This document shows positions 4,658-62,544 of a DNA stretch of 64,000 nt, one piece after another. A program made the position numbers and the translations under genes. Position 1 is the stretch's first letter, and each line of letters opens with the position of its first letter. Below the pieces are notes generated by a model that was given only the letters and a program-made list of their open reading frames with translations, was not told the DNA's origin and ran no database searches. The stretch lies in contig MHMW01000028.1 in assembly GCA_001819495.1 (NCBI GenBank), forward strand, positions 69,398-133,397, written 5' to 3'. Source of the stretch: Candidatus Portnoybacteria bacterium RBG_19FT_COMBO_36_7 (lineage in GTDB: Bacteria; Patescibacteriota; Minisyncoccia; Portnoybacterales; GWB1-42-6).

Positions 4658-5779
4658 TTATAAGAGCGGATTTATCAAGCTGTCAAGACTGGATTTGATT
4701 GTCTGCAGATCTTGTTGAACAAACTTAAGGAAAAGCCGATGATTTTTCTGTGAGCCGCCGGCGTCCAGATTCAATTTCTGCAGCATTTCTGGCTTGGAAG
4801 ACTGGATTAGCGCTTGGGATGAGCCTTCTTGATCCTGCCAAAGCAGGATGCTGGCATTTAATTGAGGTAGCATTTCGTTTATTTCTTCCGAAATTGAAGA
4901 TAAGTCTTCCGGCGAAGGCTGGAGCTGTTCAAATTCAGAGAGCTCAACGATTATCCAGGCGAGCCCTTTTTCGTTGTTGAGCTCAAGGTTTTTGAGTAGC
5001 GCTCCCCAAAGCTTGAGATACCGGAGGGGCTTGGTTTTGTAAAGAAACTGGATAATTGTTTCTTTTTCCGCTCCGTGCGTTATTAACAAAGAAGCGAGAT
5101 TGAAAGTCTGGGGAGTGGTATTGATTTTTTGGAAACTGCGGGTTTCTTCTATAATGCCCGATAGCAGACAGGTTGCCAGCGGAGCAGTAATTTGATTAGG
5201 AAAAAAAGAATTCAAAAAATCAGTTATGATTTCGGCGCAGGAACTTGAAGTCGGTTCCACCAAATTGATTTCGCCGAAATAATCATTGCCGGATTTGTGG
5301 TCAATGTTCAAAATCGGTTTTTCAAAGAAAAGGTCGGTATGTTTTTCATAAAATTGGCCGATGGTCTCCAGGTCCGGCGCACCAATAGTAATCAGGGATT
5401 CATAATTAAAAGGGCCCGGTTCCAGAAGAATATCTTTTTGCTCAAGACTATCGGGCCCGGCCAGGAATATTTTTAAAACCGAATTTTTATTTTCGTAGCG
5501 GAGCTGTTTGATCTTTTTCTGAGAAGTGTCAATTGAGATAATAAAATCGCGCAGAGGCGCGATTTCACTTTTTATTAGCTCAAGCCCGGGCAAAAAAGAC
5601 AGTTTTTCTGCGACCGGCTGTTGAACTACCAAGTCCGCTTTTTTGCCAAGATCCCTGGCCAGCATTGTCAGCGCCAAACCTGAACCAAGCGCGTCGGGCG
5701 TGTAGTCGCGAGGCAGAATTATTAAAATATTCTGGCTTTTATTGATTAGATCAAAAGCTTGTTGTTTTGGGGAAAGCAT
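4658..5779 (-). CDS. DHH-family phosphoesterase (NrnA-like nanoRNase/pAp phosphatase)
   Basis: motif DYTPDALGSGLAL matches the PDxDALGS signature; IDHKSG in the DHH motif position; ~370 aa with a DHHA1-like C-terminus. Confidence 0.65.
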   Translation of the reverse strand: MLSPKQQAFDLINKSQNILIILPRDYTPDALGSGLALTMLARDLGKKADLVVQQPVAEKLSFLPGLELIKSEIAPLRDFIISIDTSQKKIKQLRYENKNSVLKIFLAGPDSLEQKDILLEPGPFNYESLITIGAPDLETIGQFYEKHTDLFFEKPILNIDHKSGNDYFGEINLVEPTSSSCAEIITDFLNSFFPNQITAPLATCLLSGIIEETRSFQKINTTPQTFNLASLLITHGAEKETIIQFLYKTKPLRYLKLWGALLKNLELNNEKGLAWIIVELSEFEQLQPSPEDLSSISEEINEMLPQLNASILLWQDQEGSSQALIQSSKPEMLQKLNLDAGGSQKNHRLFLKFVQQDLQTIKSSLDSLINPLL

Positions 5780-5786
5780 ACCAATA

Positions 5787-5821
5787 AACTTTCAATTACT
5801 AATTACCAATTTCCAACAAAT
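5787..5821. repeat. heptamer-periodic array (AACTTTC AATTACT AATTACC AATTTCC AACAAAT)
   Basis: 5 tandem 7-nt units of the AATTNCC type in the divergent region between the DHH gene and tsaE. Confidence 0.6.
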
Positions 5822-5956: not shown

Positions 5957-6436
5957 ATGAAAAAGCTGGAGTATTTGAGCAAAAGCGCGGCCCAGACTCA
6001 AAAATTGGCTGGTGAAGTATTAAAAGAAACATTAAGTATAAAAAAGCGGAAAAACGGCATTGTTTTGGCGCTGGAAGGAGAATTAGGAGGAGGCAAGACG
6101 ACTTTTGTACAAGGGCTGGCTCGTGCGCTGGGAGTAAAAGAGAAGATAACCAGTCCAACTTTTGTTATTTTAAAAAGATTCATGATTCAAGATTCAAGAT
6201 TCAAGAACCTATATCATATTGATTGCTACCGTTTGGACAATATTGAAGATTTGGCTGATTTGGGCTTTGAGGAAATAATAAAAAATCCAGAAAATTTAGT
6301 CGTTATCGAATGGGCGGATAAAATTAAATCTATAATTCCAAAAGATGCGGTGTGGGTTAAATTTGAATGGAAAGAGGAGAAGAAAAGGAAAATAATGATG
6401 GATAATTCCCAATACCCAATTCTTAATTTCCAATAA
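5957..6436 (+). CDS. tsaE: tRNA threonylcarbamoyladenosine biosynthesis protein TsaE
   Basis: P-loop [37 protein letters not shown]: classic YjeE/TsaE motifs. Confidence 0.9.
6177..6204. repeat. heptamer array inside tsaE (GATTCAT GATTCAA GATTCAA GATTCAA)
   Basis: 4 tandem 7-nt units; translated in-frame as IQDSRFKN within TsaE. Confidence 0.6.
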
Positions 6437-6459
6437 AATTCTAAATATCAAATGACAAA
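6404..6459. repeat. heptamer-periodic array across the tsaE 3' end (AATTCCC AATACCC AATTCTT AATTTCC AATAAAA ...)
   Basis: about 8 tandem 7-nt units of the AATNNCC type covering the last codons and stop of tsaE. Confidence 0.55.
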
Positions 6460-6536
6460 AATACTTAGAAACTAGACATTCGAGCATTGGATATTTTATT
6501 GGAAATTGGATATTGGTAATTTGAAATTTTTAGACC

Positions 6537-8825: not shown

Positions 8826-8890
8826 GAATAAATATGAATAACGGAGGAAAAAAGGATAAAGTTGTTTTAATTTATCTTATTTTGTGATTT

Positions 8891-8962
8891 ATGCCAGGTA
8901 GTAGAAATTCGGCCGCTGCCAGGCAACCCTAATTTTATATTGCCGAATTTTCACTACCTGGT
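8891..8962. repeat. palindromic element copy 1 (ATGCCAGGTAGTAGAAATTCGGC ... GCCGAATTTTCACTACCTGGT), ends exactly at the ATG of paralog 1
   Basis: about 20-nt arms that are near-perfect reverse complements separated by about 30 nt; same core as copies at 30388, 42854, 50887 and 62365. Confidence 0.8.
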
Positions 8963-9871
8963 ATGGATAATTTTGAAAAACAGCAGACTATTGAAGCGAT
9001 AAAAGTTTCGATAAAGGCGCGCTGGATATACGCTTCTATTATTTTTGTCCAGGGGATAATAATCAAATATTTTTTTACTTCAGTTCCGCTGGCCGATACC
9101 CCAATTCTTTCTTTTATTCTGGCTAGTGCCTTTTTATTTAATATCGGCTATTGGCTATATATTCGCCGCCCTCCAGAAAAAATAAGTAATTTCGGAGTAC
9201 ATTTAGTTAAGGCTTTGCAGGTAGCAATGGATTCAATCTGGATTTCGGCCATTTTATTTTTTTCCGGGACAGTGGGCAAAATGATTATTACGGGTTATTT
9301 CATTGCCATTATGAACGGCGCCAGCCTCTATAAGAAAAAAGGTATGGTTCTTTCAACTTTATTTTTACAGTTTCTTTTTACTGTTTTGGCGGTGCTGCAA
9401 TATAGCGGAAAAATCAATGCAAATCCTCCTGTGAAAGAAGTATTTTCTTTTCCGTTTGCCAAGGGAGATAAACATGGCTTACTTTTTCTTTTAGTTGCTT
9501 TTTATGCTTATTCTTCTGGTGGCGCTGTTTTCGGAGGTTATCTGGCCGGACTTTTTAAAAAAAGAGAAATAAAACTGGTAGCGCAAAGAAACGAATTATC
9601 AGAAAAAACCCAGACACTTGTTCATCAGGCGCAGGAGCTTAATAAGACCAAAGACTATCTCCACGAAGCTCTGACAAAATCAGATAAAGCCAGAAACGAG
9701 CTTGAAGCAACGAAAAAGAATCTGGAAAAAACCAATCTTGAATTGAAGAATAAACTTGACGAGCTTGAAAAATACGGCCAGGTGACCACCGGCCGGGAAC
9801 TCAAAATGATTGAACTAAAAGAGAAAATCAGGTTGCTTGAGCAAAGAATCGGAGAATTAGATAAAAACTAA
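8963..9871 (+). CDS. paralog 1 of the multi-TM + C-terminal coiled-coil membrane protein family (MDNFEKQQTIEAIK family)
   Basis: N-terminus MDNFEKQQTIEAIK; about 6 hydrophobic helices with conserved FSGTVxKM; C-terminal heptad region ending ...ELEKYGQVTTGRELKMIELKEKI. Confidence 0.8.
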   Translation: MDNFEKQQTIEAIKVSIKARWIYASIIFVQGIIIKYFFTSVPLADTPILSFILASAFLFNIGYWLYIRRPPEKISNFGVHLVKALQVAMDSIWISAILFFSGTVGKMIITGYFIAIMNGASLYKKKGMVLSTLFLQFLFTVLAVLQYSGKINANPPVKEVFSFPFAKGDKHGLLFLLVAFYAYSSGGAVFGGYLAGLFKKREIKLVAQRNELSEKTQTLVHQAQELNKTKDYLHEALTKSDKARNELEATKKNLEKTNLELKNKLDELEKYGQVTTGRELKMIELKEKIRLLEQRIGELDKN

Positions 9872-9898
9872 TTTAAATAATCGCTAATTTAAGATTAA

Positions 9899-10810
9899 AT
9901 GGATAATTTTGAAAAACAACAGACCATTGAAGCGATAAAGACGGTCATCAAGGCAAGATGGCTTTATGTTTTATTGATTCTTTTGCAGGCACTATTTATT
10001 AAAACTATAACCTTAAATAAAGTTGTTCCGCTTCCTTCTTTACCGCTTATTTTTTTGCTGTTTATTGCCATCTTTATTTTAAATTTTGGTTATTGGATTT
10101 ACTTTCGCAGACCATTTGAACGGGTGAAAGTTTTTCAATTGAAAATAATTAAATTTTCTCAGTTTATTATTGACCAGTTATCCATCTCGGCAATTTTATA
10201 CTTTTCTGGGACGGTCAATAAGATGCTCATTCTGGCTTATTTTGTGCCTTTAGTTTTTGCAGCTAGTTTATACCGGAGAAAAGGAGTTATTTTCGCCGCT
10301 GTTTCCGGAATTCTGCTTTTTAGTTTTTTGGTTATTTTAGAATATTTAGGAATAATCAAGCCTGGCACTCCAGAAGAAACAACGTTTGCGCGTTTTGTTA
10401 CCGGTGACAAGGTCTGGCTGCGCGGTGAATTAATTGGTTTTACTTTTTATTATTTTTGTGGGGCAGTAGCCGCTATTTATATGGCGGATTTGTTCAGAAA
10501 AAGAGAAGAAGAATTAAAAATAAAAAAAGATGAGCTAACCGGCAAAACAGAGATTCTGACAACGCAAACTCAGGAATTAACCAAAACCCGCGATTGGCTT
10601 CATGACGCTTTGATTAAATCTGATACCGCCAGATTAGAAATAAAAAAAACAAAAGATGAACTTCAAAAGACTAATGTTGAACTTCAGGCCAAAATCAACG
10701 AACTTGAAAAATATGGAGAAGTGACAACCGGCCGGGAACTCAAAATGATTGAATTGAAAGAGAAAATCAGGTTGCTTGAGGAAAAAATCGCAGAATTATA
10801 TAAAAAATAG
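9899..10810 (+). CDS. paralog 2 of the multi-TM coiled-coil family
   Basis: same architecture and conserved motifs (MDNFEKQQTIEAIK, FSGTVNKM, EKYGEVTTGRELKMIELKEKI). Confidence 0.8.
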   Translation: MDNFEKQQTIEAIKTVIKARWLYVLLILLQALFIKTITLNKVVPLPSLPLIFLLFIAIFILNFGYWIYFRRPFERVKVFQLKIIKFSQFIIDQLSISAILYFSGTVNKMLILAYFVPLVFAASLYRRKGVIFAAVSGILLFSFLVILEYLGIIKPGTPEETTFARFVTGDKVWLRGELIGFTFYYFCGAVAAIYMADLFRKREEELKIKKDELTGKTEILTTQTQELTKTRDWLHDALIKSDTARLEIKKTKDELQKTNVELQAKINELEKYGEVTTGRELKMIELKEKIRLLEEKIAELYKK

Positions 10811-10837
10811 CAAAAACAATCACTGGCCCCAATCAAA

Positions 10838-11761
10838 ATGGATATTTTTGAGAAACAGCAGACAATTGAAGCGATAAGGACAATTATTAAAGCTCGCTGG
10901 TTTTTTATTTTAGTAATTGTTCTCCAGGCATTAATCGTAAAGATATTTTTTCAGGAAACGCCTTTGGCGAGCGCCTCGCTGATTTTTTTAATGGTCGGCA
11001 CCAGCTTTTTGTATAACTTTATTTATTGGCTTTATCTCCGTCGGTCGCCAGAAAAAGTTAATGATTCGATACTGAAAATTATTAAATTTTTGCAGGGTTT
11101 TTTAGACCAGCTGGCATTTGGAACCGTGCTTTATTTTTCTGGTACAGCCAATAAGATGCTGATGATTACCTATTTTATAATTATTATAATCAGCATGGGT
11201 GTTTATGGGAAAAAAGGGATTATTCTTACAACTCTTTCTGGCATGGCTATTTATAACGGTTTGGTTACCATGGAATACTATAGGTTAATGCCGCAGTTTT
11301 CGCCAGAGGTTTTTTCTACCACCCCGTGGCAGCCGTTAGCCAGTAATCCTGATTTTGCCCAGAAGCAAATAATTGCTTTTAGCTTATATTTAATCTCAGC
11401 GGCAATGTTTGCAATATTTTTAGGTGATTTATTTAAAAAAAGAGAGAAGCGATTAGCCGATCAAAGAGACGATTTAATAAAAAAAAGTGGTCTTTTAACT
11501 GTTCAGACCCAGGAACTTACCAAGACCAAAGACTATCTCCACGAAGCTCTGACAAAATCAGATAAAGCCAGAACAGAACTCGAACATACCAAAGCTCAGC
11601 TGGAAAAAACCAATGCCGAATTAAAAGCTAAACTAGATGAAGTTGAAAAATATGGCCAGGTGACAACCGGCCGTGAATTGAAAATGGCGGAACTGAAAGA
11701 GAAGATTAAGTCCATGGAAGAAAGGATAAGAGAATTAGAACAACAAATAACTGATAAATAA
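10838..11761 (+). CDS. paralog 3 of the multi-TM coiled-coil family
   Basis: MDIFEKQQTIEAIR; FSGTANKM; QTQELTKTKDYLHEALTKSDKAR; EKYGQVTTGRELKMAELKEKI. Confidence 0.8.
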   Translation: MDIFEKQQTIEAIRTIIKARWFFILVIVLQALIVKIFFQETPLASASLIFLMVGTSFLYNFIYWLYLRRSPEKVNDSILKIIKFLQGFLDQLAFGTVLYFSGTANKMLMITYFIIIIISMGVYGKKGIILTTLSGMAIYNGLVTMEYYRLMPQFSPEVFSTTPWQPLASNPDFAQKQIIAFSLYLISAAMFAIFLGDLFKKREKRLADQRDDLIKKSGLLTVQTQELTKTKDYLHEALTKSDKARTELEHTKAQLEKTNAELKAKLDEVEKYGQVTTGRELKMAELKEKIKSMEERIRELEQQITDK

Positions 11762-11764
11762 AAA

Positions 11765-12691
11765 ATGGACAATTTTGAGAAACAGCAGACAATTGAAGCG
11801 GTAAAAATGGTCATTAAAGCCAGGTGGTTTTATGTTTTGACCATTGTGCTTCAGGGCGCGGTTATAAAAATTTGGTTTCCTAGCGTTCCTTTGCCTACTT
11901 CGTTTTTGATTTTTCTGGTTGTGATTATTGTTTTTTTGATAAATTTTGGTTTTTGGGTATATCTTCGCCGGTCGCCGGAAAAAATCAACAATTTTACCTT
12001 AGAAGTCATTAAATTTTCCCAGGTGCCTTTGGAGCAATTTGGATTGGCCGCCATTCTTTATTTTTCAGGTACGGCCAATAAAATGCTTTTGATGATGTAT
12101 ATTATTCCGATTATGGTGGGCAGCGCTCTTTATAGGATAAAGGGAATAATTTTATCTGCTTTTTCCACAATGATTTTATACAGCGGCTTGGTTTTTTTGG
12201 AATATTTAGGGTTAATGCCTTATTTATCCCCTGAAGCCGCCGTCCAGTCAACAGGCAAGGTTTTAAGAGGAGAATGGTATTTGGTTAAAGGCCATATTAT
12301 AGGGTTTAACTTATATATAATCGGTGCTTCTTTTTATGCGGCTTATCTTGCTAATTTATTCAAACGCCGTGAGAAAAATCTTGTATTGCAGAAAAATGAT
12401 TTAGCTCAAAAAACTCAAGCGCTTATGATTCAGGCCGAGGAGCTTGAGAAAACTAAGAATTATCTTCATGAAGCCTTGGTTAAATCAGACAAAGCCAGAG
12501 CGGATCTTGAACAAATTAAATCAGAGATAGAAAAAGCTAATTCCGAATTGAAAATAAAAATCAACGAGCTTGAAAAATACAGCCAGGTGACCACCGGCCG
12601 GGAACTCAAGATGATTGAACTGAAAGAGGAAATAAAAAACCTCAAAGAAACCATCGGAAATTTAAAAAGTCAATTAGTTTCTGACAAATAA
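11765..12691 (+). CDS. paralog 4 of the multi-TM coiled-coil family
   Basis: MDNFEKQQTIEAVK; FSGTANKM; EKYSQVTTGRELKMIELKEEI. Confidence 0.8.
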   Translation: MDNFEKQQTIEAVKMVIKARWFYVLTIVLQGAVIKIWFPSVPLPTSFLIFLVVIIVFLINFGFWVYLRRSPEKINNFTLEVIKFSQVPLEQFGLAAILYFSGTANKMLLMMYIIPIMVGSALYRIKGIILSAFSTMILYSGLVFLEYLGLMPYLSPEAAVQSTGKVLRGEWYLVKGHIIGFNLYIIGASFYAAYLANLFKRREKNLVLQKNDLAQKTQALMIQAEELEKTKNYLHEALVKSDKARADLEQIKSEIEKANSELKIKINELEKYSQVTTGRELKMIELKEEIKNLKETIGNLKSQLVSDK

Positions 12692-12713
12692 ATTTTAATA
12701 AAAAAATAAATTT

Positions 12714-13718
12714 ATGAGCAATAGAAAAATATTTTTTATCTTAATGATTTTTTTATTTGCCTTGGCCGCTGTATTTTTTTTGATAGTCAATCCGTTTGGC
12801 GAAAGAAAAGAATCTAAGATTTTTCATGTTGGGCTGCTGCAGATGGCTTCAACCGTCAATGCCAATATAGAAGGTTTTAAAGCCGGTATGGAAGAGCTGG
12901 GATACGAAGAAGGCATAAATATTTTATATGATTATAAGAATGCGGAAGGAGATATGGATCTGACCAAAAAATACGCAAAGGAGATAGTGGCCAAAAACCC
13001 GGATCTGATTTTCACCAATACTTCTCCGGCAACCCAGGCAATAAAGGATGAAACCGCGAGCAAAAACATTCCTGTTGTTTTTTCTATGGTCGCTGACCCG
13101 GTAGGGGCTGGTTTTGTTGCCAGTATTCAGAGTTCCGGAAATAATCTTTGCGGCACCAGCTGCGCTTATATTGACATCGCGCCAAAAAGATTGGAATTTT
13201 TAAAGGAAGCATTTCCTGGTATCAAAAAAGTGCTGGTTTTTTATCGGCCAGAAGACAAATCCGGCGCTCCGGCGACCGAAGCGATAAAAAAAGCCGGTCA
13301 AAAATTAGGAATAAAAATAATAGATAAGCCCATTTCCAACTCGGATGAAATAAAATCGGTGCTGGAGGCTTTGGCGCCAGGCGATGTAGACGCTTTAATG
13401 GATCCGGCCGATTCCATGGTAACGGCCAATGTTGATTCATTGGTCATGGCTTCGCGGAGGCTAAAGATTCCTCTAATAATGATGAGCGACCTGGAAGCAG
13501 AGAAAGGAGCAACTATTACTTATGGCGTAGATTATTCTGACTTAGGGAAACAGTCGGCTTATATTGCTGATAAAATCCTTAAAGGAGCAGAGCCGGCTGA
13601 AATTCCGATCGAGATGCCAAGAAAATTTCGGATAGTTATGAACTTGAAAGTAGCCAGCGAGATTGGCCTTGAAATATCAGACGATGCGATTATTAGAGCA
13701 AGCCGAAAAATAGATTAA
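12714..13718 (+). CDS. ABC-transporter-type substrate-binding protein (ABC_sub_bind / COG2984-like)
   Basis: N-terminal signal/anchor helix; periplasmic binding-protein fold of the family commonly encoded next to sensor kinases; directly upstream of a histidine kinase. Confidence 0.65.
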   Translation: MSNRKIFFILMIFLFALAAVFFLIVNPFGERKESKIFHVGLLQMASTVNANIEGFKAGMEELGYEEGINILYDYKNAEGDMDLTKKYAKEIVAKNPDLIFTNTSPATQAIKDETASKNIPVVFSMVADPVGAGFVASIQSSGNNLCGTSCAYIDIAPKRLEFLKEAFPGIKKVLVFYRPEDKSGAPATEAIKKAGQKLGIKIIDKPISNSDEIKSVLEALAPGDVDALMDPADSMVTANVDSLVMASRRLKIPLIMMSDLEAEKGATITYGVDYSDLGKQSAYIADKILKGAEPAEIPIEMPRKFRIVMNLKVASEIGLEISDDAIIRASRKID

Positions 13719-22837: not shown

Positions 22838-22977
22838 GCCCAAATATCAAATCCCCGCCCGCCAGAGCCGATTGGATGAGCAATGGGATATTGATGAAAG
22901 AAACTGAATGCAGACATAACTTATTAAAACCACTTGTTCGCTTTGGCAATCGGCGGGCAGGCAAATTATTCCAAATC

Positions 22978-23061
22978 AAGGTCAAAATCCAAAATCCAAA
23001 ACGTTTTAAGCTTTGAACTTTGGATTTGATTTGACATTTGAGCTTTGATATTTGGATTTAA
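22978..23061. repeat. long heptamer-periodic array with internal inverted symmetry (GTCAAAA TCCAAAA TCCAAAA ... TTTGGAT TTGATTT GAC ...)
   Basis: about 12 units of 7 nt; the first half is approximately the reverse complement of the second half, giving a long imperfect hairpin between ruvA and the FemAB gene. Confidence 0.6.
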
Positions 23062-30381: not shown

Positions 30382-30387
30382 ATTTTT

Positions 30388-30480
30388 ATGCCAGGTAGTG
30401 AAAATTCGGCTGCTGCCTGGCAGTAAAAATTATTAAATGCCGAATCTTGCCTGTCGGCAGACAGGTTTCTACTATCTATT
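30388..30480. repeat. palindromic element copy 2 (ATGCCAGGTAGTGAAAATTCGGCTGCTGCCTGGCAG ... GTTTCTACTATCTATT), ends at the ATG of the MBL RNase gene
   Basis: left arm identical to copies 1 and 3; the right arm is partly degenerate with an internal extra palindrome GCCTGTCGGCAGACAGG. Confidence 0.75.
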
Positions 30481-31887
30481 ATGGCAAAACTGCATTTTTA
30501 CGGAGGAACAAGAATTGTCAGCGGAAGCTGCTATTTGTTGGAAGTTAATGACCCGCTTCGTCCGCGAAGCGAGGCGAGTAAGAAGATTTTAATTGATTGC
30601 GGCTTGTTTCAGGGCTCCAGAGAATTTGAAGCAAAAAATCACGCACCATTCCCTTTCAATCCAAAAGAGATTGATTGCGTTATAATTACTCATTCGCATC
30701 TTGACCATATCGGTCGCCTGCCAACATTGGTCAAAGCGGGATTCCGGGGAAAAATATTTGCCACTCTTCCGACAATAGAATTCACTCATTTGATGCTGGA
30801 GGACAGCAAAAAGGTCATGAAGGAAAAGGCCAGGCATGCCGATGCCATCCCTCTTTTCTATGAAGGAGAAATCGATGAAATGATGAAATTTTTTGTGCCG
30901 GTTGGATATCACGAAAAAACAGAAATATCGGATTTTATATCTTTTAAATTTCATGAGGCAGGGCATATTTTGGGCTCGGCGTTTATTGAATTGACCTTTC
31001 AAGAAGTCCGAAGTAATGAATCCGGAAAAAAGACAATTATTTTTTCCGGCGACTTGGGAAATTTGTCGGTGCCGATTATCAAGCCGTTGGAAAATATCGG
31101 AGAGGCGGATTATGTGCTAATTGAGTCTGCTTATGGCGACAAAATGCACGAAGATAAGAGATTGGCTAAAGACATGATAGAAGATGCGACCGAAGAAACA
31201 ATTGCCAGGCATGGCGTTTTGATGATTCCCAGTTTTGCCATGGAACGCACCCAGCAGCTGCTTTTTCATTTCAACGAGCTGGTTGAGCATAAACGCATTC
31301 CCGCCATTCCGATTTTTATCGACAGCCCGCTGGCGACAGAAGTAACGAAGGTTTATAAAAAATTTACTGATTTTTTTAACTCAGAAGCAAAGAACATGGT
31401 TTTGGTCGGGGATGATATTTTTAAATTTCCTGGCTTGAAATATACTCCCTCTGTCAAAGAATCAAAAGAAATTAACGATATCGCTCCGCCCAAGATTATC
31501 ATTGCGGGCTCGGGCATGTCTCAGGGCGGCCGGATCGTGCATCACGAAGTTCGCTATTTGCCGGACGAACGCAATACGCTTCTTATGGTTACTTATCAGG
31601 CGCATGGCACTTTGGGCCGTAAAATTTTAGAAGGAGCCAAAGAAGTGGAAATTTTGGACCAAAAAATATCGGTCAGGGCAAAAGTTAAAAGCATCAGTAG
31701 CTATTCAGCCCACGCTGACCAGAAAGGTCTGCTTGATTGGCTCTGCTGTTTGCAGAAACCGGTTAAGAAAATTTTTGTGGTGCAGGGCGAGGAAGAGCCG
31801 GCTAATGTTTTGGCGCAAAAAATAAAGGATAGCATGGGAATAGACGCACAAGTGCCCAGATTCGGGCAGGTGACGGAATTATCGTAA
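30481..31887 (+). CDS. MBL-fold metallo-hydrolase of the beta-CASP RNA-metabolising family (RNase J/CPSF-like)
   Basis: HSHLDHIG motif 2; beta-CASP region; C-terminal motif SAHADQ; 468 aa. Confidence 0.8.
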   Translation: MAKLHFYGGTRIVSGSCYLLEVNDPLRPRSEASKKILIDCGLFQGSREFEAKNHAPFPFNPKEIDCVIITHSHLDHIGRLPTLVKAGFRGKIFATLPTIEFTHLMLEDSKKVMKEKARHADAIPLFYEGEIDEMMKFFVPVGYHEKTEISDFISFKFHEAGHILGSAFIELTFQEVRSNESGKKTIIFSGDLGNLSVPIIKPLENIGEADYVLIESAYGDKMHEDKRLAKDMIEDATEETIARHGVLMIPSFAMERTQQLLFHFNELVEHKRIPAIPIFIDSPLATEVTKVYKKFTDFFNSEAKNMVLVGDDIFKFPGLKYTPSVKESKEINDIAPPKIIIAGSGMSQGGRIVHHEVRYLPDERNTLLMVTYQAHGTLGRKILEGAKEVEILDQKISVRAKVKSISSYSAHADQKGLLDWLCCLQKPVKKIFVVQGEEEPANVLAQKIKDSMGIDAQVPRFGQVTELS

Positions 31888-42850: not shown

Positions 42851-42853
42851 ATT

Positions 42854-42916
42854 GGCGGGTAGTGAAATTTCGTCAATAATTTTTTGGGCGAAACAGTCGA
42901 AATTCTACTACCCGCC
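42854..42916. repeat. palindromic element copy 4 (GGCGGGTAGTGAAATTTCG ... CGAAATTCTACTACCCGCC) with compensatory arm changes
   Basis: same GTGAAAWTTCG / CGAAWTTCTAC core as the other copies; arm ends changed CCAGG to GCGGG and CCTGG to CCCGC in a complementary manner. Confidence 0.75.
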
Positions 42917-42951
42917 TTGCCCAATTAATTGAATTACATTACGATTATCGT

Positions 42952-43893
42952 ATGAAGAAAAACAAAAAAGCAAAAGCTTTGGTTTTGCTTTCAGGCGGCT
43001 TGGATTCAATTTTGGCCGTCAGATTATTGCAGGAACAGGGAATAGAAGTTGTGGCGATAAATTTCCGGACTAATTTTTGCGGCCCGTCCAAAGCCAGACC
43101 GGCGGCGCAGGCGCTGGGCGTGCCTCTGCGCGAAGTTGATATCAGAAATGAATTTATTGAAGTTTTGAAGAAACCAAAACACGGCTACGGCGCGGGACTG
43201 AATCCCTGCATTGACTGCCACGCCTTGATGCTAAAAAAAGCAGCAGAGATCACGAGGCGGGAAGGTTATGATTTTGTGGCCACCGGCGAAGTTTTAGGCG
43301 AACGGCCGATGTCTCAGTATAGAAAAGCCTTAAAGATCGTGGAAAAAGAAGCTGGCCTGGAAGGTTATTTATTGCGTCCGCTTTCCGCCAAATTGCTTGA
43401 GCCGACAGTTGCCGAACATGACGGTCGTATCAATCGTGAAAAATTATTGGCTTTGAGCGGTCGCAACCGGAAACCGCAGATGGAACTGGCAAAAAAATTT
43501 GGCATTAAACAATATCCCAGCCCGGCGGGCGGCTGCGCTCTGACGCAGGCTGGATTTGTTGAGCGGTTAAGGGAACTGATAGGTCAAAAACCGGATTTTA
43601 ATTCAGAAGACACAGATTTAGTGCGGATTGGCAGGCATTTTTGGATTGAAGGCAGGCAGATTATCATTGGCCGCAATAAAGAGGAAAATCAAATTTTGGA
43701 AGCCATTTTTAAAAAAGGCGATATTTTAATTAAGCCAAAAAGCTTTATCGGGCCAAGCGCCCTTTTGCGAGGAGAAAAAATTGACAGCCAGATAGTTCAA
43801 AGAATCAAAGAATTAATCTTTAAGTTTTCGTCTGGGGCAAAAAATTTAGATATATCGGAATTAAATTTTAAAACGAGAGGCAGAATCAAATAA
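42952..43893 (+). CDS. PP-loop ATP pyrophosphatase, ThiI/MnmA-like tRNA thiolation-type enzyme
   Basis: PP-loop LLSGGLDSILA; CIDC plus a later Cys; about 313 aa; exact subfamily not resolvable by eye. Confidence 0.55.
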   Translation: MKKNKKAKALVLLSGGLDSILAVRLLQEQGIEVVAINFRTNFCGPSKARPAAQALGVPLREVDIRNEFIEVLKKPKHGYGAGLNPCIDCHALMLKKAAEITRREGYDFVATGEVLGERPMSQYRKALKIVEKEAGLEGYLLRPLSAKLLEPTVAEHDGRINREKLLALSGRNRKPQMELAKKFGIKQYPSPAGGCALTQAGFVERLRELIGQKPDFNSEDTDLVRIGRHFWIEGRQIIIGRNKEENQILEAIFKKGDILIKPKSFIGPSALLRGEKIDSQIVQRIKELIFKFSSGAKNLDISELNFKTRGRIK

Positions 43894-49728: not shown

Positions 49729-49986
49729 TTAATGATAAAGATAATGATTTAATTGTTTTTTAAGAAATTTTCTACCGGAACCACTTTTCAGAAATCTTTC
49801 TCTATTTTTTGCATCAATTCTGTCTATATAGCTTTCATAGTAAATTAACTTTATTAGCAATCTGTTTTTTGTTGAATCAACTTCGCCCTTGCTGTGACTT
49901 TTAAATCTGAGCTTCAAATCATTAGTATGTCCTATATACTACCATCCATTATCTTTTTTGCTTTCTAGAAGATAGACGTAATACAT
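49729..49986 (-). pseudogene. GIY-YIG nuclease family protein interrupted by an in-frame TAG
   Basis: ATG at 49986 gives MYYVYLLESKKDNGW-TAG-YIGHTNDLKLRFKSHSKGEVDSTKNR...SGSGRKFLKKQL; GIY and YIG motifs intact apart from the stop at codon 16. Confidence 0.6.
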
Positions 49987-50027
49987 TTTACGTGCCTACC
50001 GCGTGGAAAAATTTGTATGCAAATTTT

Positions 50028-50389
50028 TCTTTACGCGGTGGAGATGGCGGGAATTGAACCCGCGTCTAGTTAGCGTTTTTCAAATTATTTCTACGATCAT
50101 ATCCTAATTTTGCCTCTTAGGTTAGGAAACTTAAAATTAGACAAAATGAATCCAAACCGCATTCGGTTTATCTCGGCCGCATCCCCGAAAATATGCAGCC
50201 TATCTCGATTTTTTGACACCTTTATTTGGCTATCGAGAATCACCAAGAAAGATGTGCTTTAAGCAATAGCTAAAGCAGGTTGTTTGTTGAACAAGTTGGC
50301 ACTTATTCTTTTTCTAAAAGTTTAATGAGATTTTAGAATACTCAGATCGCATATTTTAAAAAGTGCTCCTATCGAGGCCTATCATCCCC
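50028..50389 (-). ncRNA. ssrA: tmRNA (ssrA)
   Basis: 5' end GGGGGAUGAUAGG and 3' end GCGGGUUCAAUUCCCGCCAUCUCCACC form the tRNA-Ala-like acceptor with a G3:U70 wobble and T-arm; internal frame GCC AAC TTG TTC AAC AAA CAA CCT GCT TTA GCT ATT GCT TAA encodes tag ANLFNKQPALAIA; immediately downstream of smpB. Confidence 0.85.
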
Positions 50390-50886: not shown

Positions 50887-50959
50887 ATGCCAGGTAGTGA
50901 AAATTCGACTGCTGCCTGGCAGCAATCGTAAAATATTAGTCGAATTTCTACTACCTGGT
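50887..50959. repeat. palindromic element copy 3 (ATGCCAGGTAGTGAAAATTCGAC ... GTCGAATTTCTACTACCTGGT), ends exactly at the argS ATG
   Basis: near-perfect 20-nt inverted arms; the tracked argS N-terminal extension (MKIRLLPGSNRKILVEFLLPG) is a translation of this element. Confidence 0.8.
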
Positions 50960-52552
50960 ATGCTTCGTCAAGAAATCAAAAAATTTTTGAATATGCCGGA
51001 GGCCGAAATCGGCCGGCCGGAAAATAGGAACTTTGGCGATTATTCAACTAACGTTGCTTTGAAATTGGCCAAAAAAGAAGGAAAGAATCCGATGGAAGCA
51101 GCAGAAGAAATAAAAAAGAATTTGGAATCAGGAGTCAGGAATCAGGAATTATTTAAGAAAACTGAAATTGTTAAGCCGGGTTTTATAAATTTTTTCGTGT
51201 CAGACGAATATTTGCAAAAAGAAATCGGTCAGATCATAGAAGATGGAGCGGAATATGGCAGGTTAAAACTCGGCGACAACAAAAAAGTTCAGGTTGAATT
51301 TATTTCCGCCAACCCCACAGGCCCGCTGACGCTTGGCAACGGCCGAGGCGGATTTTTTGGCGACGCGCTGGCCAACATATATGGAAAGGCCGGTTTTTCG
51401 GTAAAGCGGGAATATTTCATCAATGACGCCGGTTATCAGGTTGAGATTTTAGGCCATTCGATCCTGGGCGACGAGAAAGCGCAGTATCAGGGGCAGTATA
51501 TTGACGAACTGCGCAAAAAATTCACCGGATTTTTTTCGTCAAAAGACCCAAAGAAAGTGGGGGAAAAAGCGGCTGACTATATTATGGAAAAAATGATAAA
51601 ACCGACAGTCCGGGAACGGATGAACATAAAGTTTGATGAATGGATCTCTGAGAAAAAAATGCGTCAAACAGGCGCAGTTGAAAAAATACTCAAGCTTCTG
51701 AAAGAAAAAAACCTGACCTATGAGAAAGAAGGGGCTTTGTGGTTCAGGTCAGCTGATTTTGGCGACGACAAAGACAGAGTATTGATTACCTCTGATAAAA
51801 ATGAGAGAAACAACGAAGCGACTTATATATTATCCGATATTGCTTATCATCATGATAAATTCGTTGAGCGAAAGTTTGATAAAGCGGTAGATGTCTGGGG
51901 CGCGGACCATCACGGCTATGTAGGACGTTTGAAAGCCGCCAAAAAAGCGCTGCAGCTGCCTGGGGAGCTGGAAATCATCATTATGCAATTGGTGCGCCTG
52001 TTTGAAGGCGGCCAGGAGATCAGGATGTCAAAACGAGAGGGCACTTATATCACACTCGATGAATTACTTTATGAAATTCCGCTAGATGTGGCCAGATTTT
52101 TCTTTCTTATGTACAGCCCCGACACCCATATGGATTTTAATCTTGATCTGGCGCGCGAACAGTCGGAGAAAAATCCGGTCTATTATGTCCAATATGCATA
52201 CGCTCGGATACATAGTATCCTTGCTAAGTTCAAAGTTCAAAGTTCAAAGTTCAAGGTTGCAAGTCAAAATTTAAAATTATTGACTCATCCCTCAGAGATG
52301 GATCTGATAAAACAATTGATCCGCTTGCCAGAAATCATTGAGGATACAGCGCTCGATTATCAGGTCCAGCGTCTGCCCCAATACGCCTTGGAGATGGTGA
52401 GAGCTTTTCATAAATTTTATGAGGAATGCCGGGTGATTGATGATAAAAATCTTGATTTGACCGCGGCACGGCTTAAATTGGTGGAAGCAACCGGAATCGT
52501 TCTGAAAAACACTCTGGATTTGATGGGGATCAGCGCGCCGGAAAAAATGTAG
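50960..52552 (+). CDS. argS: arginine--tRNA ligase
   Basis: ENRNFGDYSTNVALKLAKK N-domain; class I HIGH-like region; C-terminal anticodon-binding domain; start moved to the ATG at 50960 after the repeat element. Confidence 0.9.
   Translation: MLRQEIKKFLNMPEAEIGRPENRNFGDYSTNVALKLAKKEGKNPMEAAEEIKKNLESGVRNQELFKKTEIVKPGFINFFVSDEYLQKEIGQIIEDGAEYGRLKLGDNKKVQVEFISANPTGPLTLGNGRGGFFGDALANIYGKAGFSVKREYFINDAGYQVEILGHSILGDEKAQYQGQYIDELRKKFTGFFSSKDPKKVGEKAADYIMEKMIKPTVRERMNIKFDEWISEKKMRQTGAVEKILKLLKEKNLTYEKEGALWFRSADFGDDKDRVLITSDKNERNNEATYILSDIAYHHDKFVERKFDKAVDVWGADHHGYVGRLKAAKKALQLPGELEIIIMQLVRLFEGGQEIRMSKREGTYITLDELLYEIPLDVARFFFLMYSPDTHMDFNLDLAREQSEKNPVYYVQYAYARIHSILAKFKVQSSKFKVASQNLKLLTHPSEMDLIKQLIRLPEIIEDTALDYQVQRLPQYALEMVRAFHKFYEECRVIDDKNLDLTAARLKLVEATGIVLKNTLDLMGISAPEKM
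52228..52276. repeat. heptamer array embedded in-frame in argS (GTTCAAA x3, GTTCAAG, GTTGCAA, GTCAAAA, TTTAAAA)
   Basis: 7 units of 7 nt encoding AKFKVQSSKFKVASQNLKL just after the conserved YAYARIHSIL. Confidence 0.65.
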
Positions 52553-55785: not shown

Positions 55786-55859
55786 ATTCACCCCGTTAAA
55801 TAAAAATCTAGAAGATTTTTAATTTGCTCTGCAAATTATTTAACAGGGTAAATAATTTC

Positions 55860-62272: not shown

Positions 62273-62364
62273 TTTATCCTCCTTTCAGGAATTTTTGGAA
62301 AAGAACTTGTTTTCTGAAATTAGCAGAAAAACGGCTAAAAATCAAGACTCTTGCCCCGAAGTGA

Positions 62365-62425
62365 AATTTCGGCTGTTCTGCCACAGGCGGACCAAAATAA
62401 AAAAATGCCGAAATTCTACTGCGGA
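62365..62425. repeat. palindromic element copy 5 (…CCCGAAGTGAAATTTCGGCTGTTCTGCC…AAAATA…GCCGAAATTCTACTGCGG)
   Basis: aligns to copy 3 across the GTGAAAWTTCG, CTGCC, AAAATA and CGAAWTTCTACT blocks. Confidence 0.65.
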
Positions 62426-62544
62426 GCTTTACTTTTTTGGCATTGCGTGTTATTTATAATATCAAAAACTGCACCTTAAAAAATAAAAAAGAGTCTCCTT
62501 CGTCCCGCTCAGCTGGACGATGGATGACTAAAGGAGGGATAAAG

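Follow-up and report, generated by a model that had tools for sequence, protein, structure and literature searches.

Several families of small mobile or palindromic sequences provide the background to this locus. The Correia elements (CREE) of Neisseria and the RUP, BOX and ERIC repeats are short, non-coding bacterial MITEs that are co-transcribed with neighboring genes. REPINs and IS200/IS605 elements generate no target-site duplication, have subterminal hairpins and no terminal inverted repeats, and are moved by HUH Y1 transposases. In the attC sites of integrons, conserved unpaired bases in the folded single strand define the substrate, while the palindromic elements of Rickettsia are tolerated at or within genes. 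Homing endonucleases possess a DNA-binding domain, spread by repair into the cognate allele and leave neither inverted repeats nor duplications. Among nucleases of the GIY-YIG type, Slx1 carries a zinc finger at its C-terminus and depends on Slx4; UPF0213 proteins are not, to our knowledge, mobile or repeat-flanked; and we know of no GIY-YIG protein that acts as a DNA transposase, the known ones being nucleases. Slx1, YhbQ and YazA make up one family of structure-selective nucleases, and Slx1 cuts branched DNA in the form of junctions, flaps and stem-loops (PMC7017083). Insertions other than introns in the rRNA genes of CPR bacteria have also been found to contain GIY-YIG genes (PMC11270868).

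Here, we analyze a family of palindromic elements in 64,000 nucleotides of a Candidatus Portnoybacteria genome (referred to as the window). The elements had been described in an earlier note as a dedicated translational riboregulator. We arrive at a different reading, to which we assign a probability of roughly 0.7, namely that the five copies in the window are non-autonomous miniatures (60-90 bp) of a transposable-element family that is confined to Patescibacteria, hijacks promoters and start codons, and has a full-length form encoding a GIY-YIG protein.

Results

Five dispersed copies in the window

The earlier note listed five copies, and all five were found. A covariance model built from 115 copies and run with the filters off recovered precisely these five in 64 kb, with E values from 1e-18 to 4e-6; the same run returned two further matches that are weak and doubtful. 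The core of the arm, with at most two mismatches, matched the window 8 times compared with 1.2 expected, and 8 matches were reached in none of 100 shuffles. With boundaries refined to run from CCNGG end to CCNGG end, the copies are 61-89 bp long, non-coding and dispersed. They and their principal flanks are as follows (scores are from the covariance model).

8890-8893, plus strand: left TATG target-site duplication of copy 1, an exact direct repeat of 8962-8965
8894-8961, minus strand: copy 1, a 68-bp ATG-type miniature element; 64.8 bits
8962-8965, plus strand: right TATG duplication of copy 1, containing the ATG at 8963-8965
30391-30479, plus strand: copy 2, a decayed ATG-type element; 32.7 bits
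42855-42915, plus strand: copy 3, 61 bp, with GCGGG/CCCGC ends and GAAATTTCG/CGAAATTC inner arms; 55.8 bits
50886-50889, plus strand: left flank of copy 4, CATG, matching the right flank at 3 of 4 positions
50890-50958, plus strand: copy 4, canonical ATG-type, 69 bp; 82.2 bits
50959-50962, plus strand: right flank of copy 4, TATG, in which the ATG at 50960-50962 is the argS start codon
62354-62425, plus strand: copy 5, 72 bp, with CCCCG/CGGAG ends and an interior hairpin; 52.7 bits

The two 4-nt flanks are identical in two copies and agree at three of four positions in the other three. As previously noted, three copies abut start codons, and these lie at 8963, 30481 and 50960. The ATG at 8963-8965 starts a 302-aa gene (8963-9871) that is the first of five tandem paralogues; the adjoining copy 1 has reversed arm polarity, with the GTAGAAA arm at the left, and its interior hairpin GCTGCCAGGCA still adjoins the left arm. 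Copy 4 has the layout GTGAAAA arm, interior hairpin GCTGCCTGGCAGC, AT-rich stretch and GTAGAAA arm, and contains a promoter-like site, TCGACT-18-TAAAAT, at 50905-50934. The Arg_tRNA_synt_N domain of ArgS begins at residue 2 counted from the ATG at 50960; a mechanical ORF call from the GTG at 50897 passes in frame through copy 4 into argS and would mis-annotate the ArgS N-terminus. Copy 2 is flanked by TATG at 30387-30390 and 30480-30483, and the ATG at 30481 starts a gene for a beta-CASP/RMMBL RNase. Its right arm carries a 21-nt insertion (30446-30466), itself a small hairpin of the form CCTGTC..GACAGG, and its right outer end reads TCTAT instead of CCTGG; because of this decay, the start codon beside copy 2 does not lie within a 20-bp stem. 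The site is 6 nt past the stop codon of the upstream gene and, therefore, within an operon and not at a transcription start, an observation that counts against our reading.

Copies 3 and 5 lie upstream of promoters and not at start codons. Copy 3, flanked by ATTG (42851-42854) and CTTG (42916-42919), sits on the −35 box of a leaderless-type promoter that can be read directly off the sequence: TTGCCC at 42917-42922, 17 nt, TACGAT at 42940-42945, 6 nt, and ATG at 42952. The gene at this ATG has Pfam matches of the tRNA methyltransferase/ThiI-type HUP-domain kind. Copy 5 is flanked by CTTG (62350-62353) and CTTT (62426-62429), and a TATAAT box is located downstream at 62454-62459.

Covarying arms with a conserved tandem mismatch

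The 20-bp arms have the consensus CCNGG-TAGTGAAAWTTCG-AC ... GT-CGAAWTTCTACTA-CCNGG. Pairing is conserved in copies from other genomes, which the earlier note had proposed to examine with a covariance model, and compensatory changes are many: across the 115 copies, pairing holds in 93% of the cells of the 20-pair helix, both partners change at 11 pairs, double-change cells number 204 compared with 70 in shuffles, and the covariation score is 0.243 compared with ~0.03 when the partners are slid. Within the window, the changes from CCAGG/CCTGG to GCGGG/CCCGC at the arm ends and from GAAAATTCG/CGAATTTC to GAAATTTCG/CGAAATTC in the inner arm are as originally described, but their carrier is copy 3 (42854) and not copy 4; the inner-arm variant of copy 3 is also present in copy 5. 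The arms had further been described as reverse complements. They do pair over a long distance but never perfectly, one G·U and one A×C at arm positions 10-11 being conserved. As DNA, this tandem G·T/A·C is kept in 202 of 204 elements, whichever way the arms are oriented, while the other arm positions are Watson-Crick paired. Together, arm covariation and the conserved mismatch support the claim that pairing of the palindrome is under selection, and the copies are not passively decaying relics. However, covariation of inverted repeats is expected both of an RNA hairpin and of transposon ends that have to remain alike or to pair as DNA and, therefore, does not discriminate between them. A tolerance specific to RNA, that is, G·U favored over A·C at variable arm positions, received no support, the types of mismatch being roughly balanced.

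For each window copy, the predicted fold of minimum energy is the long hairpin, at −27 to −41 kcal/mol with z from −3.8 to −8.9 (copy 1, −36 kcal/mol and z −6.2; copy 4, −40.6 kcal/mol and z −8.9); in the predicted fold of copy 2, the outer stem is not formed. The local hairpin that had been proposed as an alternative fold is absent from every minimum-energy fold, but between genomes its two sides change together: of 24 informative copies, 14 have an interior CCNGG that can pair with the left outer CCNGG, and one has the same sequence in both places. The interior motif is confined to a single miniature sub-family (24 of 124 non-redundant copies). This interior copy of the right end, covarying with the left end, is not explained by transposition and would fit an RNA or single-stranded DNA switch.

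Transposition in Patescibacteria

A genome scan identified at least 108 loci, nearly all in Patescibacteria MAGs; the 108 loci listed, from ~50 Patescibacteria assemblies, provided a census set of 124 non-redundant copies. The interior of the element varies widely between copies in both length and sequence. An exact 4-nt direct repeat, as expected of a target-site duplication, flanks 83 of the 124 copies compared with 1-4 in shifted controls. One MAG contains seven copies of 87-100% identity that have each entered another element at GTGAAAA|TTCG, all in the same orientation and with an AAAA duplication; when a nested copy and one duplicate are excised in silico, the host element becomes contiguous again at 92-94% identity. 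Empty orthologous sites are seen for L158 versus L104, at the start codon of a secA-like gene, and for L095 versus L027. Homologous sites are thus polymorphic for presence and absence of the element, both where nested copies are removed and where orthologous sites are empty. The earlier note had set the family apart from MITEs; on the evidence of target-site duplications, nesting, empty sites and a full-length form with an ORF (see below), the copies are mobile and MITE-like, and the elements transpose.

Some candidates were set aside. Hits L020, L044 and L067, from non-Patescibacteria records, were treated as unrelated hairpins: their arms read AGTAAAATTTCG, and they lack both the CCNGG ends and the GA/AG mismatch. 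The beta-CASP orthologue in L138/L140 was considered as the filled or empty partner of copy 2, but the element there lies ~110 nt upstream at a different site. The identical P0037 protein found in ten places was considered as proof of recent transposition; the gene layouts around it are near-identical, and so the ten places appear to be one locus sampled across many metagenomes.

Insertion at start codons and promoters

The association of the elements with start codons is non-random and holds in dozens of genomes; the random distribution that the earlier note had considered is not what we observe. The junction ATG begins an ORF of 60 codons or more in 44 of the 50 ATG-type copies. The host proteins are unrelated, 81 sequences falling into 67 clusters. 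Insertion sites range over −35 boxes (TTGA, YTTG), start codons and the interiors of other copies, and the register of the duplication on the ATG shifts with the sub-family (TATG, ATGA or TGRA, with TGGA, TGAA and TGAT among the 4-mers observed). Duplications of TCAA or CAAG read as TTGACA −35 boxes on the opposite strand (e.g., L093, TTGACA-17-TATAAT). Upstream of the sites, Shine-Dalgarno (SD)-like motifs are nearly absent, and −10-like boxes peak 6-9 nt upstream; the window itself contains many promoters of the form TGnTAnAAT, 6 nt, ATG. An extended consensus was sought around TATG targets and, beyond AT-richness and the −10-like box, none was found. The start-codon bias may derive in part from purifying selection, and 22 of the 48 non-coding TATG sites in the window, which is 90% coding, are already start codons.

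The duplication restores the ATG and so leaves the host gene with its start codon at the right junction, which explains why three window copies end at an ATG. The junction ATG is part of the TATG duplication, and the ATG at the base of the stem is, therefore, an insertion scar rather than part of a purpose-built riboswitch. With respect to the gene, one arm polarity outnumbers the other by 31 to 8, and about one-fifth of ATG-type copies are reversed. The sequence TCGACN-16-18-TAAAAT occurs in 13 of 49 ATG-type copies compared with 4 expected. A conserved leader peptide starting at the left ATG of miniature copies was also considered, but the mini-ORF is not conserved: in 42 copies it ends ahead of the host ATG, in 15 it continues past it in another frame, and in 5 it is fused in frame. 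The stop that is universal in one control frame arises because TAG lies within GGTAGTG.

The full-length form and its GIY-YIG protein

Full-length elements of ~312 bp have the same arms and duplication as the miniature copies and contain a single ORF of 84-88 aa that matches Pfam GIY-YIG (PF01541, E 1e-16). In 45 non-redundant long elements, this ORF exactly fills the space between the arms, with its stop codon typically 19-20 nt from the element end, and it points toward the host gene in every long element that keeps the right-flank ATG (~36 of 45). In 20 of 33 cases, the ORF shares its reading frame with the junction ATG, and gene callers report 98-aa proteins starting with MPGSENS. The ORF is under purifying selection (median dN/dS 0.15). 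Across sub-families, the arm variants change in step on both sides, and the arms co-diverge with the ORF lineages.

A metagenome scan yielded 562 relatives of the ORF, and a protein search yielded at least 1200 clusters at 90% identity; among the matches listed, the named clusters are GIY-YIG nuclease, putative endonuclease and excinuclease ABC subunit C, and the NCBI names are Patescibacteria. Residues Y4, Y6, R27, H31 and E63 are invariant in 41 sequences and Y17 nearly so. The protein is predicted to form a single domain (pLDDT 90.6). In Foldseek, it most resembles UPF0213 BH0048 and the nuclease domain of Slx1 (TM 0.60-0.69, probability 1.0; 28-32% identity to Slx1), with I-TevI and UvrC well behind, and a profile search gave BH0048 at 1e-7, EF2693 at 7e-6 and SLX1 at 1e-3 to 5e-3. 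The 64-kb window contains no intact GIY-YIG copy with these arms, the only trace of such a gene being a distant pseudogene at 49735-49986; the five copies would, therefore, need to be mobilized in trans from another part of the genome.

Discussion

We find that the palindromic elements of the window belong to a mobile family with 4-nt duplications, a bias toward start codons and promoters, an ORF-bearing form, and paired arms with a conserved tandem mismatch. That the GIY-YIG protein is the mobilizing enzyme seems probable. Whether it does so by cutting the arm hairpin or cruciform as a structure-selective nuclease, with the tandem mismatch as a recognition or ruler feature, we judge to be an even bet; branched DNA, the type of substrate cut by Slx1, is the kind of structure that a 20-bp palindrome can extrude. 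The 88-aa protein has no separate DNA-binding domain or obvious route to strand joining, and ligation or repair by the host would thus be needed. More tentatively still, and at somewhat less than even odds, we suggest that the family represents an unrecognized class of transposable elements, in which a sole Slx1-like 88-aa GIY-YIG protein excises and inserts the element by way of a hairpin or cruciform of its 20-bp ends, marked by G·T/A·C, in which the element targets the start codons and promoters of largely leaderless genes, and in which the 4-bp duplication gives it the host promoter and a 5'-terminal AUG while the host start is re-created.

In our main reading, the element inserts preferentially at start codons, and also at −35 boxes and in other copies. 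At a leaderless or SD-less gene, the host promoter and the left ATG would then drive the element; with the GIY-YIG ORF in frame with the junction ATG, the protein would acquire an MPGSENSTAI- extension, and the host gene would become a second cistron ~20 nt past the GIY-YIG stop codon. The tandem G·T/A·C mismatch sits one helical turn from the base of the stem. We speculate that host expression could be kept by re-initiation after the upstream ORF or by an internal promoter in some miniature copies; an interior decoy of the right end and processing by RNase III are further candidates. The hairpin must affect expression of the downstream gene, and this effect is better read as a consequence that is accommodated than as the purpose of the element.

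The proposal of the earlier note was the opposite, i.e., that a long hairpin in the mRNA sequesters the AUG and alternates with a local hairpin, formed by the left end and the interior CCNGGCA, that frees it, and that the gene is thereby controlled. The long hairpin is indeed very stable, and with the UAUG duplication, G·U pairs extend it over the start codon on the sense strand only; the covariation between the interior and left outer CCNGG (14 of 24 versus one identical) and the biased arm polarity (31 to 8) also speak for a function in RNA. Against this, the family carries target-site duplications, nested copies and empty orthologous sites; the 67 protein clusters downstream are unrelated, and the copies do not occupy a fixed position in the 5' leaders of functionally related genes. 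Many copies, 3 and 5 among them, are located upstream of promoters or on −35 boxes, copy 2 lacks the outer stem, and about one-fifth of ATG-type copies have the reversed polarity. The local hairpin is found in no minimum-energy fold, its interior motif occurs in one miniature sub-family only, and versions with an ORF carry the same arms. There is also no Rfam match to the element: at gathering score, the window returns only tmRNA and one tRNA, and an e-value scan of copy 4 gave only sub-threshold, low-bit matches to miRNA-precursor models. We, therefore, consider a dedicated riboregulator very unlikely. A host-kept operator for a dimeric DNA-binding regulator, or a transcription terminator, would similarly be palindromic, near promoters and covarying in both halves. 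Yet the stem is followed by no T run, the interior is highly variable in length and sequence, the positions extend from −35 boxes to start codons to the interiors of other copies, and insertion polymorphism, nesting and duplications show that the sequences arrived by insertion, which makes this option highly improbable.

Among explanations that accept mobility, the copies could be ordinary MITEs moved in trans by an unlinked conventional transposase that binds the 20-bp ends (e.g., a DDE enzyme making 4-bp duplications), with the GIY-YIG gene as a passenger or as a free-standing homing-endonuclease gene that colonized the element. Terminal inverted repeats with a duplication of fixed length are the classic DDE signature, GIY-YIG enzymes are known as nucleases and not as transposases, an intact cognate GIY-YIG gene is missing from the window although miniature copies are present, and the ~1 Mb of sampled loci leaves room for a trans-acting enzyme. 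Nevertheless, we regard this explanation as unlikely. The ORF is under purifying selection, exactly fills the arm-to-arm space in all 45 non-redundant long elements and has lineages with which the arms co-diverge; in ~190 loci, every arm without a partner within 160 bp belongs to a GIY-bearing element or a nested copy or matches by chance; and a tandem end mismatch in either polarity is unexpected for two identical double-stranded DNA binding sites. The only coherent kilobase-scale arm pair, at 4464-6047 of L095, was examined as a larger autonomous element with a transposase between distant arms; it encloses ordinary host genes and no transposase. Spread of REP/REPIN palindromes by a RAYT (HUH Y1), or of hairpin elements of the IS200/IS605 type, would account for intergenic, high-copy, imperfect palindromes that depend on a hairpin and have GTAG near their ends (GGTAGTG). 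This possibility has very little to recommend it, because the arm elements have a 4-bp duplication and terminal repeats and the ORF between the arms is GIY-YIG; a limited search of the sampled loci revealed no HUH gene between or beside the arms.

If the GIY-YIG protein is the mobilizing enzyme, then it would represent a new catalytic class for DNA transposition, and the full-length form, with ~312 bp and an 88-aa protein, would be among the smallest autonomous mobile elements known. Its choice of sites, comprising start codons, −35 boxes and a defined site in its own arm, would interest those working on insertion tools. Whatever the mechanism, the element is abundant across Patescibacteria (at least 1200 protein clusters) and corrupts annotation, both in GIY-YIG proteins called with the arm-encoded MPGSENS N-terminus and in ORFs such as that called for argS from the GTG at 50897. 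The copies mark promoters and leaderless starts in unculturable organisms, supply insertion polymorphisms for population genomics, and raise the question of how translation persists with a −40 kcal/mol hairpin on the start codon.

In the literature searched, we came across neither a GIY-YIG transposase, nor MITEs in CPR bacteria, nor this arm element, and the family is apparently undescribed both there and in Rfam. Comparison with described systems places it between several of them. The arm elements resemble Correia, RUP, BOX and ERIC sequences in being short and high-copy, with terminal inverted repeats and a target-site duplication, near genes, with long transcript hairpins (predicted here) and possible promoter-like sequences; they differ from all of these in arm sequence and in inserting at start codons and −35 boxes, from Correia elements in that the duplication is 4 bp and variable and not TA, and from Correia-type MITEs with a DDE transposase partner in that their ORF-bearing partner encodes GIY-YIG and that they are found in Patescibacteria only. 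With REPIN/RAYT and IS200/IS605, they share imperfect palindromes as an essential feature, the conserved imperfections of the stem being plausible recognition features; unlike those systems, they have terminal repeats and a duplication, and their sole ORF is GIY-YIG. They lack the integrase and the cassette array that accompany attC sites, and the sequences are unrelated. In contrast to the Rickettsia palindromic elements, the copies abut ORFs and do not extend them, save for a few in-frame fusions. GIY-YIG homing endonuclease genes, whether free-standing or intron-borne (I-TevI, T4 Seg), are likewise selfish elements with GIY-YIG as their only protein and share the catalytic domain, but the separate DNA-binding domain and the repeat-free homing are absent here: the element protein is a bare 88-aa catalytic domain located between arms with a duplication, and it is structurally nearer to Slx1 than to I-TevI (TM 0.65 versus 0.45). 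Its best matches in both sequence and fold are Slx1 and the UPF0213 proteins (YhbQ, YazA, BH0048, EF2693).

Five palindromic copies in the window

Five palindromic miniature elements, that is, short non-coding copies with ~20-bp terminal inverted repeats (arms) and CCNGG outer ends, were read in the window sequence where the earlier note had placed them, and, as it had also stated, three of them adjoin start codons:

8894-8961, copy 1; adjoins ATG 8963, start of the first gene (302 aa) in a set of five paralogues
30391-30479, copy 2; adjoins ATG 30481, start of the beta-CASP RNase gene
42855-42915, copy 3
50890-50958, copy 4; adjoins ATG 50960, the argS start
62354-62425, copy 5

The GCGGG/CCCGC ends, previously assigned to copy 4, belong to copy 3. 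In the window, the arm core TAGTGAAAWTTCG has eight matches at ≤2 mismatches versus 1.2 expected, and none of the shuffles attains eight; inverted-repeat detection recovered four of the five copies as pairs of 19 to 33 nt. Using a covariance model trained on 115 copies from outside the window and run on the window with filters off, we found exactly the five copies (82 to 33 bits) and two weak matches (49995-50042 and 55787-55852). For each copy, the long hairpin is the minimum-energy structure (−27 to −41 kcal/mol; z −3.8 to −8.9).

The right arm of copy 2 carries a 21-nt insertion, and its outer end has decayed. This insertion (30446-30466; CTTGCCTGTCGGCAGACAGGT) can form a small hairpin of its own, with CCTGT/ACAGG-like ends. 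It lies near this arm's equivalent of the arm site hit by nested insertions elsewhere and may be what a nested copy left behind, as a remnant or a footprint. Within copy 4, a GTG at 50897 is in frame with argS with no intervening stop (50897-50959); therefore, mechanical ORF calling falls into an annotation trap and lengthens argS by 21 codons through the copy. The five tandem paralogous genes (302 to 334 aa; 8963-13718) follow copy 1 directly; Pfam gave no confident match for them and only a marginal one to a coiled-coil ATP-synt_B model.

Distribution and mobility of the elements

Scanning one genome per species for the two-arm pattern gave at least 108 loci in ~50 assemblies, and nearly all of the loci listed are CPR MAGs (Paceibacteria, Portnoy-, Nealson-, Giovannoni-, Wolfe-, Gottesman-, Doudna- and Azambacteria, and bins labelled Saccharibacteria). 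Judged by these sequence matches, the family is large and, among the loci listed, confined to Patescibacteria; Rfam holds no family corresponding to the elements. Three matches in other phyla, which lack CCNGG ends, were set aside as unrelated.

The copies are mobile. An exact 4-nt direct repeat lies immediately beyond the CCNGG ends in 83 of 124 copies, while shifting the comparison by 1 to 2 nt gives 1 to 4 matches. In one Portnoybacteria MAG, seven nested copies (87 to 100% identical) each occupy a different host element, all between GTGAAAA and TTCG, identically oriented and flanked by an AAAA duplication; further nested copies occupy the interior hairpin of ATG-type copies, i.e., elements with a junction ATG (sampled loci L029 and L040). 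Once the nested copy and one duplicate are removed, the host element aligns gap-free with dozens of intact copies (identity up to 94%). Orthologous sites lacking the element were found at two start codons: L158 carries it at a secA-like start codon where L104 does not (74% identity across the junction), and L095 carries it at another, which is empty in L027 (80% identity). L087 (1915-2074) holds two identical miniature copies in direct tandem with a common CAGG junction.

A full-length form encodes a GIY-YIG protein

Arms without a short-range partner led to elements of ~312 bp in three loci (L102, L034 and L057), which have the same arms and duplication and a single interior ORF of 88 aa (Pfam GIY-YIG, E 1e-16). 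A metagenome scan with this protein gave 562 relatives; in nearly all of the best 80 of these, the layout is NATG abutting CCNGGTAGTGAAAATTCGAC, 6 to 8 nt, ATG to stop, GTCGAATTTCTACTACCNGG abutting TATG, and the host gene. Among 45 non-redundant long elements, 28 have a TATG duplication; the ORF is directed toward the flanking host gene in all that have a right-flank ATG (~36 of 45), and its stop typically lies 19 to 20 nt before the element end. In 20 of 33 long elements, the junction ATG and the ORF share a reading frame, and consequently public gene calls include 98-aa proteins starting MPGSENS(T/I)AI, which is the left arm translated; in seven more, a short upstream ORF ends 2 to 18 nt before the GIY-YIG start. 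The ORF is under purifying selection (median dN/dS 0.15; 135 pairs), and arm variants shift jointly on both sides across sub-families (e.g., AAAACTCG/CGAGTTTT; GGAAGTG/CACTTCC). Searching for related proteins gave at least 1200 clusters; where these have a source name, it is GIY-YIG nuclease, putative endonuclease or excinuclease ABC subunit C, with NCBI names that point to Patescibacteria.

In a TGGA sub-family (L133, L137, L139, L145, L146 and L173), a GIY-YIG gene with its own leaderless-type promoter lies just beyond an element end (...CACTACCCGG, TGGA, CCGGnnTATAAT, 6 nt, ATG; ~10 to 20 nt upstream of the GIY-YIG start), and elements of this sub-family insert at that TGGA. More distant small GIY-YIG genes at L091 2494-2754 and L093 6239-6487 lie between other inverted repeats (AAATTTTTGACTCG/CGAGTCAAAAATTT and CCCAGTGAAATA/TATTTCACCGGG), so the pairing of ORF and palindrome may reach beyond the family.

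Insertions at start codons and −35 boxes

With every copy oriented by its arms, the duplicated 4-mers were TATG (31), CATA (8), TCAA (8), AAAA (6), CAAG (4) and rarer ones. In 44 of the 50 copies with a junction ATG/CAT, an ORF of 60 codons or more begins at this triplet; thus, the host start codon forms half of the duplication. The link to start codons pointed out in the earlier note is non-random. It is not gene-specific, since clustering the 81 downstream proteins gives 67 unrelated groups.

In reconstructed empty sites, Shine-Dalgarno-like motifs are nearly absent 5 to 12 nt upstream, and −10-like hexamers, often TGnTAnAAT, are enriched 6 to 9 nt upstream. In the window, only 13 of 65 predicted genes have a Shine-Dalgarno-like motif, some very strong (AAAGGAGG), and there are several textbook leaderless promoters (TGATATAAT, 6 nt, ATG; 25713 and 44767). 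Leaderless-type promoters, in which TGnTAnAAT or a close match lies exactly 6 to 7 nt before the ATG without a Shine-Dalgarno motif, occur at gene starts 5957, 22262, 25713, 42952 and 44767. On the opposite strand, the TCAA, CAAG and CAAA classes read as TTGACA-type −35 boxes (e.g., TTGACA-17-TATAAT in L093). Copy 3 is of this class, on TTGCCC-17-TACGAT-6-ATG (42917-42954); copy 5, with flanks CTTG/CTTT and no clear −35 box after it, may be.

The start-codon bias can be explained in part by a neutral model: 22 of 48 non-coding TATG sites in the window already are start codons. It is insufficient because sub-families strike the start codon in shifted registers (ATGA; TGGA, TGAA and TGAT, where the element's final A rebuilds the ATG) and because nested insertions are strict in site and orientation. 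Since copy 2 is located 6 nt past the stop codon of the upstream gene, the feature shared by the sites is the start codon and not always a transcription start.

A conserved arm mismatch and a proposed mechanism

Over 204 elements, all arm positions other than 10-11 are Watson-Crick paired with frequent double substitutions, bearing out the proposal that pairing is selected. Positions 10-11 are G·T and A·C in 202 of the 204, in an order that varies with orientation. This tandem transition mismatch lies one helical turn off the stem base and is kept whichever way the arms face with respect to the ORF. Two identical double-stranded DNA binding sites would hardly account for it, and it fits a folded substrate, hairpin or cruciform. 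The structure of the GIY-YIG protein is predicted confidently (pLDDT 90.6); among solved structures, the protein comes closest to BH0048 and EF2693, both UPF0213 proteins, and to the Slx1 nuclease domain (profile E 1e-7 to 5e-3; TM 0.60 to 0.69), and I-TevI and UvrC match far less well. Slx1 shares with YhbQ and YazA a single family of structure-selective nucleases, whose substrates are branched DNA (PMC7017083). From the mismatch and this kinship, we infer that the GIY-YIG protein recognises and cleaves the folded element ends; strand joining would require host functions.

Effect on the host gene

In sense RNA, G·U pairs carry the stem through the UAUG repeats, burying the host AUG. For the ORF-bearing form, a plausible route to host expression would be that ribosomes start at the left AUG, which in a leaderless gene is 5′-terminal, read through the left arm and re-initiate ~20 nt past the stop codon; this route is not conserved among miniature copies. 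Some of these could use an internal promoter: TCGACN-16-18-TAAAAT occurs in 13 of 49 ATG-type miniature copies, including copy 4 (50905-50934), versus 4.0 expected. RNase III processing might also contribute, as might an interior decoy of the right end, GCTGCCNGGCAGC, which covaries with the left end. This covariation is the one part of the earlier switch model with comparative support. The claim of a dedicated riboregulator rather than a MITE is not supported, given the duplications, nesting, empty sites and 67 unrelated host clusters.

Other palindromes and repeats in the window

49735-49986, minus strand, GIY-YIG pseudogene with one in-frame stop, ~42% identical to element-borne GIY-YIG proteins, directly 3′ of the tmRNA gene (50036-50389, minus strand)
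49995-50042, hairpin between these two (CCGCGTAAAGAAAAATTTG cata CAAATTTTTCCACGCGG), a weak element-model match (E 0.02) and possibly the terminator of the tmRNA gene or a minimal arm relative
55787-55852, intergenic palindrome (CCCCGTTAAATAA, 32 nt, TTATTTAACAGGG) 8 nt upstream of ATG 55861, resembling the arms of the divergent GIY-YIG element L185 (CCCCGTTAGAAATTTAG...); the model match is not significant (E 0.19)
5795-5816, minus strand, and 6499-6527, plus strand, runs of a 7-nt unit TTGGNAA (TTGGAAA TTGGATA TTGGTAA TTTGAAA), which lie 10 to 35 nt upstream of a pair of genes, divergent or adjacent (4658-5779, minus strand; polA at 6537); they may be a regulator-binding array
6404-6439 / 6493-6528, inverted repeat alongside these runs
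22972-23059, complex palindromic, repeat-rich stretch (AAATCCAAAATCCAAA ... TTTGGATTTGATTTG) upstream of an ORF at 23052

Comparison with known systems

A full-text literature search turned up neither this element nor any account of MITEs in CPR bacteria or a GIY-YIG transposase; the element appears to be undescribed, as do its enzyme and its choice of target. According to one paper, GIY-YIG proteins occur in CPR rRNA-gene insertions that are neither introns nor homing-like (PMC11270868); these proteins may be of the same family as the element ORF. We put the probability that the underlying element represents a new transposon class at slightly below even (about 0.45). The elements differ from REPIN/RAYT and IS200/IS605 in having a duplication, and no HUH gene was seen in the sampled loci. 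They also differ from classical GIY-YIG homing endonuclease genes, because the element protein is without a DNA-binding domain and arms and duplication are present. The window copies have the inverted repeats, duplication, multiple copies and insertion polymorphism that define MITEs, and they behave like Correia-type elements.
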